From Longimicrobiales bacterium (GTDB lineage: Bacteria; Gemmatimonadota; Gemmatimonadetes; Longimicrobiales; Gaopeijiaceae), in NCBI GenBank assembly GCA_965249725.1, contig CBDFMQ010000002.1:1856001-1920000 (forward strand): a stretch of DNA of 64,000 nt, written 5' to 3'. The notes under the pieces were generated by a model, which was not told the DNA's origin, did not search any database, and saw only the letters and a program-made list of their open reading frames with translations. The position numbers and the translations under genes were made by a program. Of the stretch, positions 2,407 to 57,790 are shown piece by piece; position 1 is the first letter of the stretch; each line of letters starts with the position of its first letter.

Positions 2407-4215
2407 GTGCAGGGATCGCAGGGAGCCCACCAGGAAGAGGAGGCGCTGGGTAAGGCCTACGACGCTCGCCTGATGAAACGGCTCCTCGAGTACCTAAGGC
2501 CTTATCGGCGGCACGTATACCTCGCAGTCGTTCTCCTGATGGTCGCGTCATTCCTACAGGTGGTGGGTCCTTGGCTGACCCGGATCGCCCTGGACGACGC
2601 CATCCCTGCCAGCGACGGTCCCTTGTTGGCCAAGCTGGCAGGGGCCTACGTGGCTGCGATCGTGGCCGGTTTCCTCCTCATGTACGGCCAGACGCTGCTC
2701 ACCACCTGGCTGGGACAGCGGGTCATGTATGACTTGCGCACCGAGATCTTCGGGAAGCTGCAGCGCATGGACCTGCGTTTCTACGACCGGAATCCGGTGG
2801 GCCGGCTCATGACGCGGATCACCAGCGACGTCGAGACGTTGAACGAGCTCTTCAGTTCCGGGGTCGTCGCGGTGTTCGGCGACGTCTTCACGCTCGGCTT
2901 CATCTTGGCCGCCATGCTCTACATGGACTGGAGGCTCGCGCTGGTGAGCTTCAGTGTTCTACCGTTCGTGGCCCTGACCGCGTTCCTGTTTCGGGCGCGA
3001 ATCCGGGACGCCTACAGGGACATCCGCGTCCGGCTGGCTCGGCTCAACTCGTACCTGCACGAGCGCCTTACCGGCATCGCCGTGGTGCGGTTGTTCAACC
3101 GCGAAGAAGCCGACGCGAGCCGGTACGGCGTGATCAACCAGAACTACCTGGAGGCGCACCTGCGCTCCATCACGTACTACTCCCTTTTCTTCCCGGTCAT
3201 AGAGCTATTCACAGCCATCGCCCTGGCGCTCATCATCTGGCGGGGCGGAGCCTCGATCCTGGAGGCGACACTGACCGTGGGGGTCTTGGCCGCATTCCTC
3301 CAGTACGCGCGGCGCTTCTTCCGCCCCATCCAGGATCTCTCGGAGAAGTACAACCTCCTGCAGGGCGCAATGGCCTCGTCCGAGCGCGTCTTCAAGCTGT
3401 TGGACCGCGAGATCGAGATCGTCGACCCTGCAACCCCGACCGTCTTGGCCTCACCCGTCCAGGGTCGGATCGAGTTCGAGGACGTCTCCTTCGCCTACGG
3501 CAAGGACGGCTCAGGTGCGTGGGATTGGGTCTTGGAAGAAGTCAGCTTCGAGGCGAAGCCCGGAGAGCGCCTTGCGATCGTCGGGCACACCGGGGCAGGC
3601 AAGACCACACTCATCAACCTACTGATGCGCTTCTATGAACCGCAGAAAGGCGAGATCCGCCTGGACGGGATCCCCATCGCGCAGATCGGGCTCGACGAAC
3701 TTCGGGCCCACATCGGTCTCGTGCTCCAGGACGTGTTCCTTTTCAGCCAGGACGTTGCGTACAACATCCGCCTAGGAGCGAACGAGATCTCGGACGAGCG
3801 CGTCCGGAACGCCGCCCAGCGGATCGGCGCAGCGCCCTTCATCGAGCGCCTCCCGGACGGATATGGGCAGCCCTTGGGCGAGAGGGGCTCGACGCTCTCG
3901 GTCGGAGAACGCCAGCTCGTGTCCTTCGCACGGGCTCTGGCGTTCGATCCGCAGGTGTTGATCCTGGATGAAGCGACCAGTTCGGTCGACTCGGAGATCG
4001 AGGCGCAGATCGAAACAGCCACCGACGAACTCATGGCGGGGCGGACATCGATGGTGATCGCTCACCGGCTGTCGACCGTGCAGGGAGCCGATCGCATCAT
4101 CGTGCTCCATCACGGGAAGCTCGTGGAGGAGGGCAGCCACGAGGAGCTGCTCGAAGCGGAGGGGCTGTACGCCCGGCTCTATGAGCTCCAGTTCACGAGG
4201 ACGCCCGCCGCCTGA
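2407..4215 (+). CDS. ABC exporter, fused permease/ATPase (MsbA/MdlB-like)
   Basis: N-terminal TM domain, Walker A GHTGAGKT, LSVGERQ signature, ILDEATS, AHRLST. Confidence 0.9.
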   Translation: MQGSQGAHQEEEALGKAYDARLMKRLLEYLRPYRRHVYLAVVLLMVASFLQVVGPWLTRIALDDAIPASDGPLLAKLAGAYVAAIVAGFLLMYGQTLLTTWLGQRVMYDLRTEIFGKLQRMDLRFYDRNPVGRLMTRITSDVETLNELFSSGVVAVFGDVFTLGFILAAMLYMDWRLALVSFSVLPFVALTAFLFRARIRDAYRDIRVRLARLNSYLHERLTGIAVVRLFNREEADASRYGVINQNYLEAHLRSITYYSLFFPVIELFTAIALALIIWRGGASILEATLTVGVLAAFLQYARRFFRPIQDLSEKYNLLQGAMASSERVFKLLDREIEIVDPATPTVLASPVQGRIEFEDVSFAYGKDGSGAWDWVLEEVSFEAKPGERLAIVGHTGAGKTTLINLLMRFYEPQKGEIRLDGIPIAQIGLDELRAHIGLVLQDVFLFSQDVAYNIRLGANEISDERVRNAAQRIGAAPFIERLPDGYGQPLGERGSTLSVGERQLVSFARALAFDPQVLILDEATSSVDSEIEAQIETATDELMAGRTSMVIAHRLSTVQGADRIIVLHHGKLVEEGSHEELLEAEGLYARLYELQFTRTPAA

Positions 4216-4225
4216 GTCTGCCGGC

Positions 4226-5893
4226 CTAGTGCCTGATCTGCGCGGTGTCGGCGGCCAGGGCGCTCGCTAGACTGTCCGCCAGAGCGGCCGCCGCGAGACG
4301 TTCCGCCTCCACGGCGGCCTCACGCTCCGAGACCGGTACGATCTTGCCGCCGACCCTCATGGTGGGCTCCGTCCCCTCGGGGTATCCACCCGCCGGAGCG
4401 AGAGCCGCTTCACTGTACCGACTCGAGGGATTCCAGAGGATCCACTCTTCGATCCCCGCGTCGTACGTGGCCTGAATCTGGGCCCGTACCTCGGGGGCTC
4501 CGTAGGCCGGAGCACCCAGCGTGAAGTCCTGCAGCCAGGGGCGTGTGGTTCCCGCACCCTCCACCTCGGCGGAGCGTTTGAGGGCGTCGGTGAGAGCCCT
4601 CTTCACGATCTGATACGGATGCCCGTTGGGATCCTGGATTCCGAAGCTGCCGACCCAGTAGTGGGACGGATAGACCATGGGGAGAGCGACGTCCATGGCT
4701 CCGATGAACTCCTCCCAGAGTTGTCCGATGCCGACGTCCGTGCGGGCCGAGGTGGTCACGCCGAAGACGTCGGCGGTCATCGCCACCTCCCCCAGTTCCT
4801 CTCGGGCGTACTCCAGGAACTCGCGAATGGCCTGAGTGCGCCTCCGAGGCCCCTGTCCCGGATACCAGGCCCGATTCAGCTCCGCCTCGGGCGCATCAGG
4901 GAAGCGCAGGTAGTCCCACTGGATTTCGGGAAAGCCGACTGCGACGGCCTCCTTGGCCAGGGCGATGTGGTAGTCCCAGACGGCACGGTCGAACATGTTG
5001 GCCCAGACGAGATCCTTGTCGTCAACCCAGACACCGCCCGATGTGTCCTGCACAGCCAGATCCGGCCGATTCCCCACCAGAAGCGGGTCCTTCACGATGA
5101 CGATCCGGGCGATCGGATAGATGTCGGCCTGGTGGAGTCTCTCCAGAAGCCCCACCAGGTCGCGAATCCGGATCTCCTGATCGGCCCCGACCTCGCGCGC
5201 GAACATCACCTGGGTCGGGTGGCTCACATACCCGGTCGCATCCTTCAGGTCGATGACGAAGCTGTTGATCTCCGTCCGCTTCGCCAGCGCGATGAGATTC
5301 TCGGAGCGGAGCCGGGATCCGGAAGCCCAGCCGTTCAGGTAGATGCCGCGGACCGCCTCAGGCCTGGTGAAGACCAACGGCTCCTCCGGGAGCACCAGTC
5401 GGGCCACCGCAGCACCGTCGCCGGTGGTCGCGTTCGGGGCCGGCAGAGTCTGGACCTCGGGCGCGTCGGTGGTCGCGTCAGTGGGCGCGTCAGTGGGCGC
5501 TTCGGTGGTCGCTTCGGTGGTCGCTTCGGTGGTCGCGACATCGGTCATCGGGTCGGCGGTCGTAGTCGGCGCGCTGGTCGGGTCGCTGGTCGGGGCGCCC
5601 GTCCGATCGGGGGCGTCGGCACCCACCTCCGTCACCTCCACACCGGGCTCCACACCGGGCTCCACGTCCATCCACGCTTCGGACGCTGGCGGACGCTCGG
5701 ACCCGTCGGACGCGGCAGCCGGAAGGTCGTTGGTGGACACCCCCGCCTCAGGCGGGGACTCGCCGCGACAAGCGACCACCCACGTGGCTAGTATTGTGAC
5801 CAGCAGCGCCATGAGCGGGAGCGGGCGATTCGTGCGCAAAATGTGGCTCGTCCTCTGCGAGGAGTTCCTCGTCACACCGGGTCCGTAAGACAC
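4226..5893 (-). CDS. Putative glycoside hydrolase (DUF4015-like) lipoprotein with Thr/Ala-rich linker; start uncertain
   Basis: VRGIYL, VIDLKD, GFPEIQWDYLRFP, PMVYPSH, RPWLQDF motifs; lipobox-like VVAC. Confidence 0.7.
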   Translation of the reverse strand: MSYGPGVTRNSSQRTSHILRTNRPLPLMALLVTILATWVVACRGESPPEAGVSTNDLPAAASDGSERPPASEAWMDVEPGVEPGVEVTEVGADAPDRTGAPTSDPTSAPTTTADPMTDVATTEATTEATTEAPTDAPTDATTDAPEVQTLPAPNATTGDGAAVARLVLPEEPLVFTRPEAVRGIYLNGWASGSRLRSENLIALAKRTEINSFVIDLKDATGYVSHPTQVMFAREVGADQEIRIRDLVGLLERLHQADIYPIARIVIVKDPLLVGNRPDLAVQDTSGGVWVDDKDLVWANMFDRAVWDYHIALAKEAVAVGFPEIQWDYLRFPDAPEAELNRAWYPGQGPRRRTQAIREFLEYAREELGEVAMTADVFGVTTSARTDVGIGQLWEEFIGAMDVALPMVYPSHYWVGSFGIQDPNGHPYQIVKRALTDALKRSAEVEGAGTTRPWLQDFTLGAPAYGAPEVRAQIQATYDAGIEEWILWNPSSRYSEAALAPAGGYPEGTEPTMRVGGKIVPVSEREAAVEAERLAAAALADSLASALAADTAQIRH

Positions 5894-46746: not shown

Positions 46747-46780
46747 GAAAAAGCCCCCAGATGTGAGCACATCTGAGAGC
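46747..46780 (-). terminator. Intrinsic terminator, duplicate of the one after tRNA-Ser(CGA)
   Basis: Minus strand GCTCTCAGATGTG-CT-CACATCTGGGGGC-TTTTT. Confidence 0.7.
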
Positions 46781-46853
46781 CGAGCGGACTTTGAGGGCGA
46801 TCTGGCACGGAGTTCTGGCGTCAGACGTCCGCTCCACCCGTTCGGCGCCGCCG

Positions 46854-47184: not shown

Positions 47185-47218
47185 GAAAAAGCCCCCAGAT
47201 GTGAACACATCTGAGAGC
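47185..47218 (-). terminator. Intrinsic terminator ending the tRNA operon
   Basis: Minus strand GCTCTCAGATGTG-TT-CACATCTGGGGGC-TTTTT. Confidence 0.8.
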
Positions 47219-47222
47219 TAAG

Positions 47223-47306: not shown

Positions 47307-47345
47307 ATGCTGTCGCGGGTGGGTCTAGGTGAAGTGTGTGTATAG

Positions 47346-47419
47346 TCGGGGCGCCCGGATTCGAACCGGGGACCTCTGCGTCCCGAACGCAGCGCTCTAC
47401 CGGACTGAGCCACGCCCCG
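47346..47419 (-). tRNA. tRNA-Pro(CGG), intact
   Basis: CTGCG-TTCGGGA-CGCAG; full cloverleaf. Confidence 0.95.
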
Positions 47420-47450
47420 ATTTACTGCAACAACGACACCGGTCTATTCC

Positions 47451-47605
47451 TACCGGCGCCCGGATGGAGCTGCGGTCGCCTTCGGCGATCCTCGCTCGTC
47501 TCGGCGGATACCACCTCGATCTTCGAAACCGACCCGCCGCCTCGGCTCGAACCGGGGACCTCTGCGTCCCGAACGCAGCGCTCTACCGGACTGAGCCACG
47601 CCCCG
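47451..47605 (-). pseudogene. tRNA-Pro(CGG) copy with an 81-nt T-loop insertion (47466-47546) and an altered acceptor 3' end
   Basis: Identical to the intact gene up to TTCGA; resumes at ATCCGGGCGCC, then GGT instead of CCG. Confidence 0.85.
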
Positions 47606-47636
47606 AATTACTGCAACAACGACACCGGTCTATTCC

Positions 47637-47792
47637 TACCGGCGCCCGGATGGAGCTGCGGTCGCCTTCGGCGATCCTCGCTCGTCTCGGCGGTTACCTC
47701 CTCGGTCTTCGAGACCCTAACAGGCGCCTCGGCTCGAACCGGGGACCTCTGCGTCCCGAACGCAGCGCTCTACCGGACTGAGCCACGCCCCG
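47637..47792 (-). pseudogene. tRNA-Pro(CGG) copy with an 82-nt T-loop insertion (47652-47733) and an altered acceptor 3' end
   Basis: Same pattern as the 47451 copy; second ~186-bp tandem unit. Confidence 0.85.
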
Positions 47793-47868
47793 AATTCACA
47801 TCTGACCGCCCAAAACACGTTTCCGCGGAAACGTGACATACGGGAGCAAGCGGGCGGTACTTCCAACC

Positions 47869-47974
47869 ACGGGGTGGGATTGGCCGAGCTCCGCTCGTCC
47901 GTCTCGGCGAAGATCACCTCGATCTTCAATACCAGCCCGACGCCTCGGCTCGAACCGAATCCCACACACTACGC
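47869..47974 (-). repeat. Duplicated 3' end of tRNA-Ser(GGA) with a 69-nt T-loop insertion (47881-47949)
   Basis: Minus strand GTGGGATTCGGTTCGA[GCCGAGGCG...]ATCCCACCCCGT. Confidence 0.8.
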
Positions 47975-47990
47975 ATTCAAATACTTGAAA

Positions 47991-48074
47991 CGGACGGGGT
48001 GGGATTCGAACCCACGAGGGTGTTAACCCACACGATTTCCAATCGTGCGCCTTAAGCCGCTCGGCCACCCGTCC
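47991..48074 (-). tRNA. tRNA-Ser(GGA)
   Basis: CACGA-TTGGAAA-TCGTG; variable arm. Confidence 0.95.
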
Positions 48075-48106
48075 TGGGGGAGAGCCGTTTGCGGGCTCTC
48101 AGGCAA

Positions 48107-48216
48107 CGGAGGGAGTGGGATGGGCCGAGCTTCGCTCGGCGGTCTCGGCGAAGATCACGCTGCTCTCCGAAGAACACCCTGCCGCCTCGGCTCGAACCGA
48201 ATCCCACATCCTACGC
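48107..48216 (-). repeat. Duplicated 3' end of tRNA-Ser(GCT) with a 70-nt T-loop insertion (48122-48191)
   Basis: Minus strand GTGGGATTCGGTTCGA[GCCGAGGCG...]ATCCCACTCCCTCCG. Confidence 0.8.
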
Positions 48217-48233
48217 GTTCTCGTACCTCTTAG

Positions 48234-48317
48234 CGGAGGGAGTGGGATTCGAACCCACGCGGACTTGCGTCCAACGCCTTAGCAGGGCGTCGCCTTAAGC
48301 CACTCGGCCATCCCTCC
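48234..48317 (-). tRNA. tRNA-Ser(GCT)
   Basis: ACGCC-CTGCTAA-GGCGT; variable arm. Confidence 0.95.
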
Positions 48318-54627: not shown

Positions 54628-54701
54628 CGGGACGTGGCGCAGCTCGGTAGCGCACCTGAATGGGGTTCAGGGGGTCGCCGGTTCGAATCCGGCCGTCCCG
54701 A
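54628..54701 (+). tRNA. tRNA-Pro(GGG)
   Basis: CCTGA-ATGGGGT-TCAGG; full cloverleaf. Confidence 0.95.
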
Positions 54702-54720
54702 TTCATTGTGGAATAACGAG

Positions 54721-55059
54721 TTACGGGAACGGCTGCCTATTGAATAGGTGGCCGTTTCTCATGCCTACGTCGACTGCTCGAAAGAGCGTCCTTGTGCTCT
54801 CCACCTTTCGACTACCGCCGCTCTCCCAGCGATAGCACATAACGGTTCTGAGTTGCCGACGTGCCGAAGGCATGTCCCGTAGCGAAGCGAAGGGAGGGTT
54901 GTTCATCGGCTGGATGTCTACTTCGATTGACGTCCGCAGTCCCGGCGGCGCGGTCGGATGCTCACCAAGGATCGCTTGAGATCCAAAGACGAACAAATCA
55001 GTGTCGTCCGCGACGTCGCATGCCGCCCGGATGGCATGTTCAAGTTGATCGCGGGTCAT
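54721..55059 (-). pseudogene. Truncated DUF6036-like nucleotidyltransferase
   Basis: MTRDQLEHAIRAA..VFGSQAILG..SIEVDI; family resemblance is lost after about 55 aa. Confidence 0.6.
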
Positions 55060-55984
55060 TCTGTATCTCTAGATAGAGAAGAACCTCGTCTCGCTCATCG
55101 GCCGCCAAGGCAGCAAGAAACGGCGAGCTCTGTCGGAGTCGCTGGGCTCGGGAAGTCGTAGACACTAAGAACTCGCGAAGTCGCTCAATGGAATACTGCG
55201 ACAGTATGCTATGCCACTCTCGGAGATCATGAGCTGCTGCTCCCTGGTCTTTTTCCAAGACAAGCTCAAGGTGTCTAATCGCCCTCCGAACCAGCGACGG
55301 GTCGCGATCTAAGAGATCACTCACCGCTTCCGCTAGCCTCAATGCCCGCCGGTCACGGTCTCCATGGCCCGGAGGAGGACGGCTCGACGCGAGGGCTTCT
55401 ACGGAAGGCACGCCGGCGAGCAACGTCATCTTAGCCCAGTCAATGTTGGGTGCATCCGCACGACTGAAGCTGTGTACCTCGATGGTCAAGTCAAAGTCTC
55501 GCTCCACCTCCGCGATACGACTACGGATCTCGTCACTCAGCCACGCCAGTGAACCTGACTCTCCGACCACGCCAATGTGCAGCGGCTCTCCAGGCCGGGC
55601 CGGTGGGGCATCGAGCCAGGCAACTCGTATTTCGGTGAGGCTTTCAAGGGTATTGCGGATGCTCGCAAGTAGTCTCTGGTATCGGTCACTCTCACCTCGA
55701 AAGAGTGGAACGAGCTGTCTTGCGACCAGATCGTCGGTTCGTAATTCGAACTGCCGGGACCGTCCCCCGCCGACTCTTCGCACGAACCCAGTCTTGGCGA
55801 GGCGACCCAGCGCTCGCCGGGCACCGGCCTCCGTGAGGCCAGACCGATCTGCAGCATCGGCCACTGTAATCGGCCCAACTATCTCGTCAGCGAGAACTCT
55901 GAGGAGGCGTACCTGTGCCTTGGTTCCAAGTAGATCGTTAAGGGGGAACCGAAGCGTGTCTTGTTCTATCGCAATGGGTCTCAT
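55040..55984 (-). CDS. Winged-HTH protein with NTase-like middle and RQSSPF C-terminal domain (antitoxin-like)
   Basis: VADAADRSGLTEAGARRAL HTH; RAQRLRQSSPF; overlaps the NTase gene. Confidence 0.65.
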   Translation of the reverse strand: MRPIAIEQDTLRFPLNDLLGTKAQVRLLRVLADEIVGPITVADAADRSGLTEAGARRALGRLAKTGFVRRVGGGRSRQFELRTDDLVARQLVPLFRGESDRYQRLLASIRNTLESLTEIRVAWLDAPPARPGEPLHIGVVGESGSLAWLSDEIRSRIAEVERDFDLTIEVHSFSRADAPNIDWAKMTLLAGVPSVEALASSRPPPGHGDRDRRALRLAEAVSDLLDRDPSLVRRAIRHLELVLEKDQGAAAHDLREWHSILSQYSIERLREFLVSTTSRAQRLRQSSPFLAALAADERDEVLLYLEIQNDPRST

Positions 55985-56005
55985 GTTGATACGCAAGTTC
56001 TGTAA

Positions 56006-56043
56006 TAGATACTATTGTACTTGTTTAGATACTATAGTATCTA
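56006..56043. promoter_or_regulatory. Probable operator: 18-bp palindrome TAGATACTATAGTATCTA plus an extra half-site
   Basis: Palindrome 56026-56043 and half-site 56006-56015, upstream of the HTH gene. Confidence 0.65.
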
Positions 56044-56302
56044 TGTTCCCCAGTCAAGGATCCTGTAAAGGGCACACCCCAAAACCGTTCGTGCGGGACT
56101 GATCTAGAATCAACTGCGACCCCGCATTTGTGGCGCGATTCGCGCCCCGCGGACCACCTAAAGTCATCTACAACGGACACACGCACGGACACTCTTTTAG
56201 GGCCGGCAGAGTCCGGCATCCCCTCCCGCAAGAAACGGCAGATCGTGCACCCTACCAGTGATTTACACGGTTTCTTGCCGCCATTCGGCTAGTTGAAGGC
56301 TC

Positions 56303-56433
56303 GAATGGGGTTCAGGGGGTCGCCGGTTCGAGCCGAGGCGGCAGTGAGGCCTTCCGCGATGCGGCCAAAACACTCACCGCCGAGACGACCGGAGATCGCC
56401 GAAGGCGATCGGAGGTCAATCCGGCCGTCCCGA
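56303..56433 (+). repeat. attR-like 3' half of tRNA-Pro(GGG) with an 87-nt T-loop insertion (56332-56418)
   Basis: GAATGGGGTTCAGGGGGTCGCCGGTTCGA[GCCGAGGCG...GGTCA]ATCCGGCCGTCCCGA. Confidence 0.88.
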
Positions 56434-56436
56434 CTA

Positions 56437-56474
56437 AGGCCCTTCAGCAGAAATGCTGGAGGGCCTGTTTGTTT
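56437..56474 (+). terminator. Terminator-like hairpin after the tRNA fragment
   Basis: AGGCCCTTCAGCA-GAAA-TGCTGGAGGGCCT-GTTTGTTT. Confidence 0.7.
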
Positions 56475-56629
56475 GGGGCCTGATCGGGGCGGCCGGACTC
56501 TGCGGGGTCGCGAAGCGAGGCGCTCACCGTCCCCTGACACCTGATCAGGTATCAGGAGTTCAGCAGAGCCGTCTGACAGAGGGTCAGGGGGACACTACTC
56601 AACCATGATCCTAGTCCCCGAGGCTGTAA

Positions 56630-57790
56630 TCAGCCCCGCTCACCGCTCTCGCTGAACAGTTGCATATATCTATCGAAGGCGAACATGCGATAGGTCTTCC
56701 TGCCGGTCGTTTCCCGCAAGACTCCGACCTTCTCCAACGCATTGGTGAGGGCGTTCGCAGCGGGCTGCGACAACCCGGTAATCGCCTTCACCTGCTTAAC
56801 GGTCACGATCGGAGTTCGAAACAGCTCTTCAAGGAGATCAAGCGCCGAGCCGGCGCGGCGTCCGAGCCGCTGATTGATCTCCGCTCTCGTCTCTTCTCGA
56901 AGGTTGACGATGTGTCGTGCGGTTGTGGTAGCTTCCTCTGAGACCGAGGCGACAGCCTCGAGGAAGAACGCCAGCCATCCCTCCCAGTCTCCCTTCTCCC
57001 GAATCGCTTGGAGTCGATCGTAGTACTCCTGACGGTGGCGTTTGAAGAATATCGAGAGATAGAGGATGGGCTCACGAAGCACTCGTTCGTGAACGAGCAT
57101 GAACGTGATCAAGAGCCGGCCGACCCTGCCGTTTCCATCCAGAAAAGGATGCACCGTCTCAAAGTGGGCGTGGGCAAGAGCGACGCGGATCAGTATGGGG
57201 AGGTCGGACTCGGCGTGGAGGAAGTCCTCGATCTGATAGAGTGAATCTCGCATCTCCGAGACAGGCGGAGGGACGAATCGAGCCGTTTCAGGTGTTGGAC
57301 CGCCGATCCAGTTCTGGGACTTACGGAACTCACCCGGGGTTTTCGACGACTCGCCTCCACGGACCCCGGTCATCAGCTTCTCATGGATCTCACGGATCAA
57401 CCGGAGCGACAGAGGAAGGTCCTTTACTCGATCGAGCCCAAAGCGCAACGCGTCGATGTAGTTCGTGATCTCTCGAACATCTACCCGCCGGTCACTCCGC
57501 TCCATCTGTGCTTCGTACTCCAGCAGATCGACTAGAGAGGCTTCGGTTCCTTCGATCTGACTAGATAGCACCGCTTCCCGGCGAACGTACATGAAGACGA
57601 ATAGGTCGGGATCCGGCAGGATTTCGGCAGATCCCACCAATCGTCCCAACGCCAAGGTTGCCCTTTCCAACAGGTCTGCTAGAGAATCCAATTGGAGGTC
57701 TCCCGGAGGGAACGCTTCGGGGATGAACGCCGCAAATCCTCCAGCCTGTTTCCGGAACACCCCTGCCCTGTGCTTGCTATCAGTGACCAC
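56630..57790 (-). CDS. Fic-family protein with inhibitory helix and C-terminal HTH
   Basis: HPFLDGNGRVGR Fic motif; SSQIEG inhibitory motif. Confidence 0.92.
   Translation of the reverse strand: MVTDSKHRAGVFRKQAGGFAAFIPEAFPPGDLQLDSLADLLERATLALGRLVGSAEILPDPDLFVFMYVRREAVLSSQIEGTEASLVDLLEYEAQMERSDRRVDVREITNYIDALRFGLDRVKDLPLSLRLIREIHEKLMTGVRGGESSKTPGEFRKSQNWIGGPTPETARFVPPPVSEMRDSLYQIEDFLHAESDLPILIRVALAHAHFETVHPFLDGNGRVGRLLITFMLVHERVLREPILYLSIFFKRHRQEYYDRLQAIREKGDWEGWLAFFLEAVASVSEEATTTARHIVNLREETRAEINQRLGRRAGSALDLLEELFRTPIVTVKQVKAITGLSQPAANALTNALEKVGVLRETTGRKTYRMFAFDRYMQLFSESGERG

Follow-up and report, generated by a model that had tools for sequence, protein, structure and literature searches.

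We have analysed a family of short structured inserts in tRNA gene copies, five of which lie in a 64,000-nucleotide stretch of DNA (the window) from a Longimicrobiales bacterium of the phylum Gemmatimonadota (assembly GCA_965249725.1, contig CBDFMQ010000002.1, positions 1,856,001 to 1,920,000 of the forward strand). There is little doubt that these inserts belong to the class of tRNA-linked repeats (TLR/RtT) known from Escherichia coli, and it is very likely that they insert as a unit. We consider that they are probably the Gemmatimonadota form of the TLR/RtT core, a gene-less mobile mini-element. What is new here is that the insert is found alone, precisely placed and without duplication in integron attC sites, in a dispersed repeat, in the tail of an IS91-family transposase gene and in single-copy accessory tRNA genes.

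Below, G000 denotes the source genome (95.8% complete), and the other G and L labels denote relatives' genomes and fetched loci; L126, L151, L156 and L161 were chance matches in coding sequence and were removed ahead of the counts. The five inserts of the window were confirmed to the base where they had originally been placed. In tRNA sense, all of them lie between TTCGA and ATCC, a pattern with five matches in the window and none in each of 100 shuffles of this 64-kb sequence. Their variable middles measure 31, 32, 31, 32 and 37 nt (the earlier estimate was about 30-36), and the loop of the second arm is GAA in four and GGA in one. G000 as a whole holds 14 copies of the exact motif, and a covariance model gave 19 hits at E<=0.001 together with three partial ones.

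The 150 distinct elements span 66-94 nt and consist of two abutting hairpins, H1 and H2, plus one base. Their order is 5'-GCCGA, a closing stem of 3-4 bp (GGCG/CGCC, GCG/CGC or GGG/CCC), a variable middle, GAGAC, H2, one base and ATC, the base ahead of ATC being A in 102, C in 46 and G in 2. As read from the sequence, GCCGA and GAGAC can prolong H1 to the first base of the element through tandem G.A pairs, and the outer G..C of the H1 base becomes C..G in E. coli and in some variants. The loop of H2 is GNA in 120 of the 150 (GAA 80, GCA 20, GGA 10, GTA 10). Conservation of pairing was borne out in alignment A1, which contains 64 of 68 candidates (L152, L163:1835, L168 and L205 omitted) and in which 91.7% of cells pair. 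It has 99 both-side changes compared with 20 in shuffles, although in the first stem the compensatory counts are in part an artefact of how 3-bp variants were aligned. None of 500 shuffles reached this number, slid controls gave 17-25, and one base pair of H2 (69:101) alone contributes 33.

The middle of H1 forms a loop that is pseudo-symmetric and measures about 13+13 nt; two bases, nine variable bases and two bases make up either half, and G stands at the sixth variable position of the halves in 107 of 138 and 110 of 138 cases. This is the most variable part of the element and the fastest to diverge: among 26 close pairs, 248 of 966 positions differ there, compared with 93 of 781 in H2 and 47 of 1048 in the spacer alongside. 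A pseudo-symmetric loop (about 36-55 nt) that contains two variable segments of equal length recalls the tigRNAs of TIGR systems and the bridge RNAs of IS110, and TIGR stem-loops have two 8-12 nt spacers between conserved boxes, according to an excerpt of the published description (PMC12045711). H1 might be a dual-spacer guide of this kind, made from tRNA and cassette transcripts and loaded on a Nop-domain protein. We consider this very improbable. The element has no CCA/UG boxes and no box C/D, its two 9-nt halves being flanked by NC and WY, and in some variants a plain hairpin takes the place of H1. Targets of the halves were not found: they do not match their own flanks, they matched their own genome no better than shuffles did (12 elements), and 11.6 Mb of genome and loci gave nine rows (seven distinct) compared with 4 and 7 in controls. 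Halves recur between elements above the shuffled level (35 vs 18 and 31 vs 10), as descent predicts; L178 and L205 were also excluded from one of the tests on the halves. A Nop-only protein is neither adjacent nor encoded in G000, where PF01798 gave no hit and the extra PF02371 hits are broken IS1111 copies. Among 44 hand-picked genomes of the family, in which the element-negative ones come mostly from two genera, the presence of IS110 is unrelated to that of the element (24 of 30 carriers and 12 of 14 non-carriers).

Filled and empty targets

Insertion as a unit is indicated by targets that occur both with and without the insert. In G000, six attC sites are filled and 16 are empty, four have an IS1111-type end, and ten further rows include three variant empty attC; the insert position is exactly GA^ATC. 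Three relatives also have filled attC sites, in which H2 is of two different types. Another such target is a dispersed repeat about 200 bp long, one end of which is conserved. It was recorded for G075, G119, G144 and G345 (loci e.g. L465-L479 and L487-L506), and three of the genomes, all from a single genus, have 19-34 copies each. Hand counts of this repeat gave 5 filled and 10 empty among 19 matches in G144, 18 and 8 among 34 in G119, and 24 and 1 among 27 in G075. At the tail of an IS91-family transposase gene, L458 and L482 are filled, while four places in 3 of 301 genomes are empty, the flanks matching; those of L530 are identical to those of L482. In L175, the element interrupts three accessory tRNA genes of full length at the T-loop, none of them with a duplicate adjoining, and removal of the insert in silico restores a tRNA-Pro call. 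The three belong to a compact, apparently acquired array of 17-18 divergent tRNA genes (2600-4700).

Further sites are 3' copies of tmRNA, the anticodon arm of a tRNA-Pro copy and several unique sites. Elements also stack head to tail, with ten distinct junctions joining the end of one to the start of another. No target duplication was seen at attC, the dispersed repeat, the IS91 tail, L175, the other sites or the stacks.

The shared target is GA^AT. Among 49 distinct junctions, a few rows of which are mis-parsed, position -2 is G in 39, -1 is A in 40, +1 is A in 45 and +2 is T in 45, and GTCC stands directly 3' of the element in none of 144. By hand assignment, in which the Cys unit was assigned by adjacency, an insert-bearing copy exists in G000 for 10 of 15 tRNA genes with the loop TTCGAAT, for one of five with TTCAAAT and for none of 31 others (p 2e-6). 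Since 10 of 15 TTCGAAT genes compare with 1 of 36 others, the sequence of the T-loop matters.

The inserts had been proposed to be a non-autonomous, site-specific mini-element, and this is supported by three unrelated families of targets that have both filled and empty alleles, together with clean inserts in single tRNA genes. The proposed targeting of tRNA genes mostly holds, with TTCGA on the 5' side in 120 of 144 elements, but it is too narrow, since attC, tmRNA copies, an anticodon arm, the IS91 transposase tail and the dispersed repeat are also used.

The precise position of the insert (58/59) and the single-copy interrupted tRNA genes of L175 would also suit a mini-intron, self-spliced or spliced by an enzyme, that leaves a working tRNA. 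To this we give almost no credence. At 66-94 nt the inserts are, as had been pointed out, much shorter than group I and group II introns, whose cores could not be accommodated, and no Rfam family matches the five inserts of the window at E<=10. Core tRNAs always retain an intact gene, decayed acceptor stems are frequent in the interrupted copies, and inserts also lie in attC and antisense to coding sequence.

Other insertions share these targets. Group IIC-attC introns also target attC. IS1111-type IS110 elements of G000 lie in attC at C3:754786-755823 and 2274096-2275133, 4-6 nt from the mini-element position and likewise without duplication; their ends are unrelated to those of our element, which has no coding capacity. 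Broken IS1111 copies lie near C3:5067 and 752277, and one attC has both IS1111 and the mini-element. A locus with tRNA-Ser(TGA), an element unit and an attC/IS1111 fragment occurs twice in G000, nearly identical (C3:3783-7800 and 750846-753450), which is either a true duplication or an assembly artefact. A structured insert of another kind, about 70 nt long and unrelated to our element, lies at L384:2000-2350 (G148:C2 near 282500) in the anticodon arm of duplicated tRNA-Ser(GGA) copies, and the adjoining T-loop inserts have a plain GA/GNA hairpin as the first hairpin.

Units at tRNA genes and their relation to tRNA-linked repeats

The units of the window have the parts given below, in which intact tRNA genes were called by ARAGORN and also matched by Rfam. 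As noted earlier, an intact gene lies near each interrupted copy (Pro-CGG, Ser-GGA, Ser-GCT and Pro-GGG), that of Pro-GGG being 1.6 kb from its copy.

48233..48317, minus strand: intact tRNA-Ser(GCT) (ARAGORN; Rfam)
48192..48229, minus strand: leader of the Ser(GCT) unit, TLR-type, with spacer, antisense Ser T-arm copy (GTGGGATTCG) and GGTTCGA (from sequence)
48122..48191, minus strand: insert of the Ser(GCT) unit, 70 nt, with hairpin H1 (variable middle) and short hairpin H2
48107..48121, minus strand: 15-nt direct repeat of the tRNA-Ser(GCT) 3' end from ATCC
47991..48074, minus strand: intact tRNA-Ser(GGA) (ARAGORN)
47950..47987, minus strand: leader of the Ser(GGA) unit, with spacer, antisense arm and GGTTCGA
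47881..47949, minus strand: insert of the Ser(GGA) unit, 69 nt
47869..47880, minus strand: 12-nt repeat of the tRNA-Ser(GGA) 3' end, decayed beyond
47605..47792, minus strand: first Pro(CGG) tandem unit, with tRNA 5' part, insert, 11-nt 3' remnant and spacer
47652..47733, minus strand: insert of the first Pro(CGG) unit, 82 nt, long H2
47419..47605, minus strand: second Pro(CGG) tandem unit, of the same kind
47466..47546, minus strand: insert of the second Pro(CGG) unit, 81 nt, long H2 identical to that of the insert at 47652-47733
47345..47419, minus strand: intact tRNA-Pro(CGG), with both interrupted copies lying upstream (ARAGORN)
54628..54701, plus strand: intact tRNA-Pro(GGG) (ARAGORN)
56303..56331, plus strand: tRNA-Pro(GGG) 3' fragment of island-end type, reaching from the anticodon arm to TTCGA and lying 1.6 kb downstream of the gene
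56332..56418, plus strand: insert of the Pro(GGG) copy, 87 nt, long H1 loop and long H2
56419..56433, plus strand: 15-nt rest of the tRNA-Pro(GGG) 3' end

The Pro-CGG units form a 187-bp tandem repeat, and nine of their ten differences fall in the variable middle of H1, the tenth elsewhere. Both Ser copies follow their genes, each preceded by an antisense copy of the tRNA T-arm, and the Pro-GGG 3' fragment appears to have the shape of a usual island end. Logan contigs of run X1, which may be the source sample, span the Ser-GGA and Ser-GCT inserts with 0-1 differences; among those listed, none spans the Pro-CGG inserts. Mapping, which was to contigs only, gave no joint removing an insert and is evidence neither way, and in an RNA run the covered tRNA parts came from other organisms.

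Three further features of the region were noted. A near-perfect direct repeat of about 36 nt, with copies 438 bp apart (46748-46785 and 47186-47222), lies directly downstream of tRNA-Ser(CGA) on the minus strand and is unrelated to the inserts in sequence. A 1.6-kb islet with a MarR-like HTH gene separates tRNA-Pro(GGG) from its 3' copy and is followed by a Fic gene (54702-57790). Another 16 kb along (G000:C3:1928413-1928478) is a third 3' copy of Pro(GGG), whose insert has an internal deletion.

In the family at large, the tRNA 3' end is repeated within 250 nt upstream in 85 of 150 elements. The antisense arm, which can pair with this repeated 3' end, is present in 53 of 132 (6% in permutations). 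In the loci, which had been selected because they contain elements, the small leader hairpin ending in GGTTCGA is never followed by ATCC. Outside tRNA genes, G000 is without any empty tRNA-type copy that contains GGTTCGAATCC. Arrays with a period of 130-260 bp are common and often close with a truncated element, and the units at tRNA-Cys, Pro, Ser and Arg have orthologues that persist in different genera.

The inserts had been taken to belong to no described family, which was wrong at the class level, as the tRNA-linked units share the anatomy of E. coli TLR/RtT, though without an RF00391 score. In the excerpts available of a recent account, the 3' end of a TLR is by definition the same as the final 18-19 bp of the tRNA gene directly upstream of it (PMC8144298). 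The Ser-GCT unit, which repeats 15 nt up to the discriminator (no CCA is encoded), and the Ser-GGA unit, which repeats 12 nt, fall under this definition; the Pro-CGG units, upstream of their intact gene, and the Pro-GGG copy, 1.6 kb off, do so only loosely. Both in this family and at E. coli tyrT, tyrV, proK and lysQ, a structured insert with an antisense-arm leader lies between GGTTCGA and ATCC, and the whole unit reads tRNA 3' end, spacer, antisense arm, GGTTCGA, multi-hairpin insert, A or C, ATCC and the 3' end again. GNA loops, tandem G.A pairs and tandem arrays with a truncated last copy are common to both, as is the first-hairpin base (S)YCGA-GCG...CGAGA(S), and a tandem GA motif is mentioned for RtT in an excerpt of PMC7657543. 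The leader GGATGAGAA(C/G)C...GGTTCGA and the first hairpin CTCGAGCG...CGAGAG of E. coli tyrT, proK and lysQ also occur in Gemmatimonadota variants, and the E. coli argV/Y/Q and lysT/W/Y/Z repeats are shorter forms without the leader hairpin.

On the other hand, the first hairpin of E. coli TLRs lacks the hypervariable internal loop of 30-44 nt found in Gemmatimonadota, the 3' repeat is 11-15 nt here (no encoded CCA) compared with 18-19 there, and it is here that the core is shown alone at non-tRNA sites, with filled and empty alleles. The E. coli tyr, proK and lys units, among them the 178-bp repeats of tyrT-tyrV with the RNA rttR/RtT, are Rfam RtT (RF00391, threshold 45 bits) and score 47-138 bits; the same model gave no hit in G000, searched down to E<=10, and none in the window. 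What speaks against a close kinship is that our covariance model R1 gives an E. coli unit only 11 bits, and for this reason homology to E. coli TLRs rests on anatomy and short motifs. Since RF00391 misses G000 and R1 barely scores E. coli, we regard the two as separate sequence families of the same anatomical class.

According to the same excerpts, TLRs were described in 1978, number 22 in E. coli K-12 and had no known function in 2021 (PMC8144298); they are transcribed and processed, as partial views of two papers state (PMC8144298, PMC4986893). Such units could be maintained by the host as tRNA trailers that are co-transcribed and processed into a structured small RNA like E. coli rtT, copies elsewhere being incidental, and this would be compatible with a mobile origin. 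The persistence of orthologous units across genera and the pairing of the antisense arm with the repeated 3' end fit this idea, which we nevertheless consider unlikely. It leaves the clean inserts in attC, the IS91 tail and the dispersed repeat and the stacked pairs unexplained, near-complete genomes of other genera of the family are without the element, and the arrays decay. The loops are GNA triloops, which suit DNA, and not GNRA or UUCG tetraloops. In addition, the phenotype once assigned to rtT was retracted, as the excerpted account reports (PMC8144298).

The spread of the element within Gemmatimonadota is patchy. In GTDB, the exact pattern was found in 51 stretches, all but two titled Gemmatimonadota; one exception (L222) has Gemmatimonadota-type neighbours, and the other (L178) is a low-GC non-Gemmatimonadota bin with the same element ends (3900-4300). 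A variant pattern was found in 87 metagenome stretches. Within the family of G000, exact patterns were present in 22 of 151 and 36 of 301 genomes, and the covariance model was positive in 30 and negative in 14 of the 44 hand-picked ones; in an even phylum-wide sample, 2 of 151 genomes were positive under stricter filters.

In viral contigs, the 120 matches of a loose motif were all chance matches in coding DNA, and three stricter family patterns gave 0, 0 and 27 matches, the 27 by chance. The leader pattern gave 20 stretches there, two of them TLR-like at tRNAs, and the last pattern gave five matches, two being enterobacterial tyrT repeats. BLAST against plasmids and phages with family or RtT queries returned tRNA hits, chance hits or chromosomal pieces. 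One viral contig of 34% GC (L395:2250-2750) has the same TLR-type layout and leader with a third kind of insert, and another (L408) has TLR-type units with the same leader and a different insert.

Possible route of movement and candidate enzymes

In DNA, GNA triloops and tandem G.A pairs of the CGAG type have exceptional stability, and for this reason they indicate a folded DNA strand. A single-stranded DNA intermediate is therefore slightly favoured by us. The mini-element would fold and move as single-stranded DNA of the tRNA-sense strand, and a trans-acting enzyme might cut and paste it in the manner of HUH 'peel-and-paste' elements, HUH-type chemistry being a tentative suggestion. The preferred target would be the T-loop GGTTCGA^ATCC. 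Because insertion would destroy the tRNA, only duplicated outcomes would persist at essential tRNAs. At Pro-CGG these would be the tandem copies, and at the Ser genes the direct-inverted-direct T-arm copies, in which the inverted arm may have arisen by fold-back. At Pro-GGG, a pre-existing island-end fragment would have received the insert. Later unequal recombination could then give the arrays of 130-260 bp called TLRs.

Non-autonomous IS200/IS605 derivatives and REP/BIME sequences, which are moved by the HUH Y1 enzymes TnpA and RAYT, are likewise small and defined by hairpins, with no terminal inverted repeats, no target duplication and a short target motif. RAYT and REP sequences are treated in a paper available to us in excerpt (PMC3733652). 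Our element resembles them in its precise insertion without target duplication beside the short motif GA^AT. In contrast to them, it has no GTAG/CGTC tag, its target needs bases on both sides of the cut, and its copies are few per genome and concentrated in tRNA T-loops.

Several observations weigh against a mobile single-stranded element. DNA fold energies are near-equal for the sense and antisense strands (-17.2 vs -16.6), the counts of G-T and A-C (7 vs 4) are too few to fix the strand, and reconstituted non-T-loop targets are no more folded than random GAAT sites (-5.3 vs -4.9 +/- 2.4 kcal/mol). By eye, no fit of the element to the guide-cleavage pairing of IS200/IS605 was apparent, and its last bases vary. 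Filled sites do not by themselves speak for present activity, since those in attC, like those in the dispersed repeat, could all go back to one or two old events that the carriers then multiplied. As for an autonomous version, all listed right ends that keep the first arm had a left end within 70 nt, and the fetched loci held no long form of the element. The Y1 transposase PF01797 occurs in 2 of the 30 element-positive genomes and is absent from G000.

Two other routes were weighed against a mobile DNA element. In the first, RNA travels and is copied by a reverse transcriptase with target-primed integration, the inverted T-arm being a cDNA snap-back and the hypervariable loop a product of error-prone copying. 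The 3' junction fixed at ATCC, the variable 5' leaders and the fast divergence of the H1 middle are consistent with such a retro-element, which we hold to be quite unlikely: the non-tRNA inserts are clean and without duplication, truncations are on the 3' side of the element, and the substitutions are ordinary (46 of 79 are transitions). The single reverse transcriptase gene of G000 (C3:198388-199629) lies in its own cassette, followed by genes for an ABC-type membrane protein and a phospholipase-D-like protein, far from any copy of the element.

In the second, the hairpins are a primosome assembly site (ssi) on the lagging-strand template, at which local re-priming yields duplications. Plasmid ColE1 has a stretch (GACCGAGCGTAGCGAGTCA, L268 near 1330) that the short H2 closely matches and that we take to be the ssiA region. 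ssiA recruits PriA, according to an excerpt of PMC3167613. Furthermore, 16 of 19 scored copies in G000 are on the leading-strand sense, the exceptions including the Pro-GGG copy and one attC copy. We regard this explanation as improbable. The ColE1 record carries no ssi annotation, the H2 motif is short and could have arisen by convergence as a stable DNA hairpin, the orientation of the elements follows that of their targets, and precise insertion is left unexplained.

Considering the enzyme that a mobile mini-element would need, the 15 open reading frames scanned in the window include no mobilising enzyme, as originally stated, and clustering of 1712 open reading frames from 64 loci gave no recurrent neighbour except syntenic host genes. 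Among the 44 family genomes, an integron integrase above the cut-off was found in 17 of 30 carriers and 0 of 14 non-carriers, and Y2/IS91 in 19 of 30 and 2 of 14. Both are leads only, because the genomes were hand-picked, kinship confounds the comparison, 13 carriers are without full IntI and the sites of these enzymes are unlike the element junctions. The element does not appear to be a miniature of IS110/IS1111 or of IS91/ISCR, as the ends at the three IS110 loci of G000 and those of the multi-copy Y2 elements of four relatives are unrelated to its own. Integron-type recombination of a folded tRNA site was also set aside: it would place the insert on the crossover itself, and a G^TT crossover does not fit an intact gene followed by the copy.

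In G000, the full integron integrase gene (C3:1028959-1030403) and the cassette array start about 350 bp downstream of the tRNA-Pro(TGG) element unit. L518-L527 contain IS91-family elements that are about 2.5 kb long and present in multiple copies, with a recombinase-like gene upstream and an attC-like end GTTAG; up to seven copies occur in G011.

In our literature search, made largely without subscription papers, TLR cores were not described as mobile or in attC; early TLR papers (Egan and Landy 1978, Bosl and Kersten 1991/1994, Rudd 1999) or supplements may describe the T-loop position of the insert. A broader reading, which we offer as a doubtful speculation, is that TLR/RtT cores are pan-bacterial, gene-less mobile elements of single-stranded DNA, for which a recombinase would read GA^AT in T-loops and rebuild the tRNA 3' end; in Gemmatimonadota, H1 would have turned into a hypervariable loop of two segments that may act as a programmable guide, stacked in mini-arrays behind tRNA promoters.

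Compared with E. coli, this lineage adds filled and empty alleles, unrelated targets, stacked copies and about 180 diverse sequences. Its data define the ends of the element, the target GA^AT and the invariant bases, so that a mobility assay and a hunt for the enzyme can be designed. If the reading as a mobile mini-element is true, a recombinase that places 70-90 nt precisely and without duplication in T-loops and attC would add a new type to the site-specific tools, and it would affect views on how tRNA integration sites and integron cassettes become inactivated.

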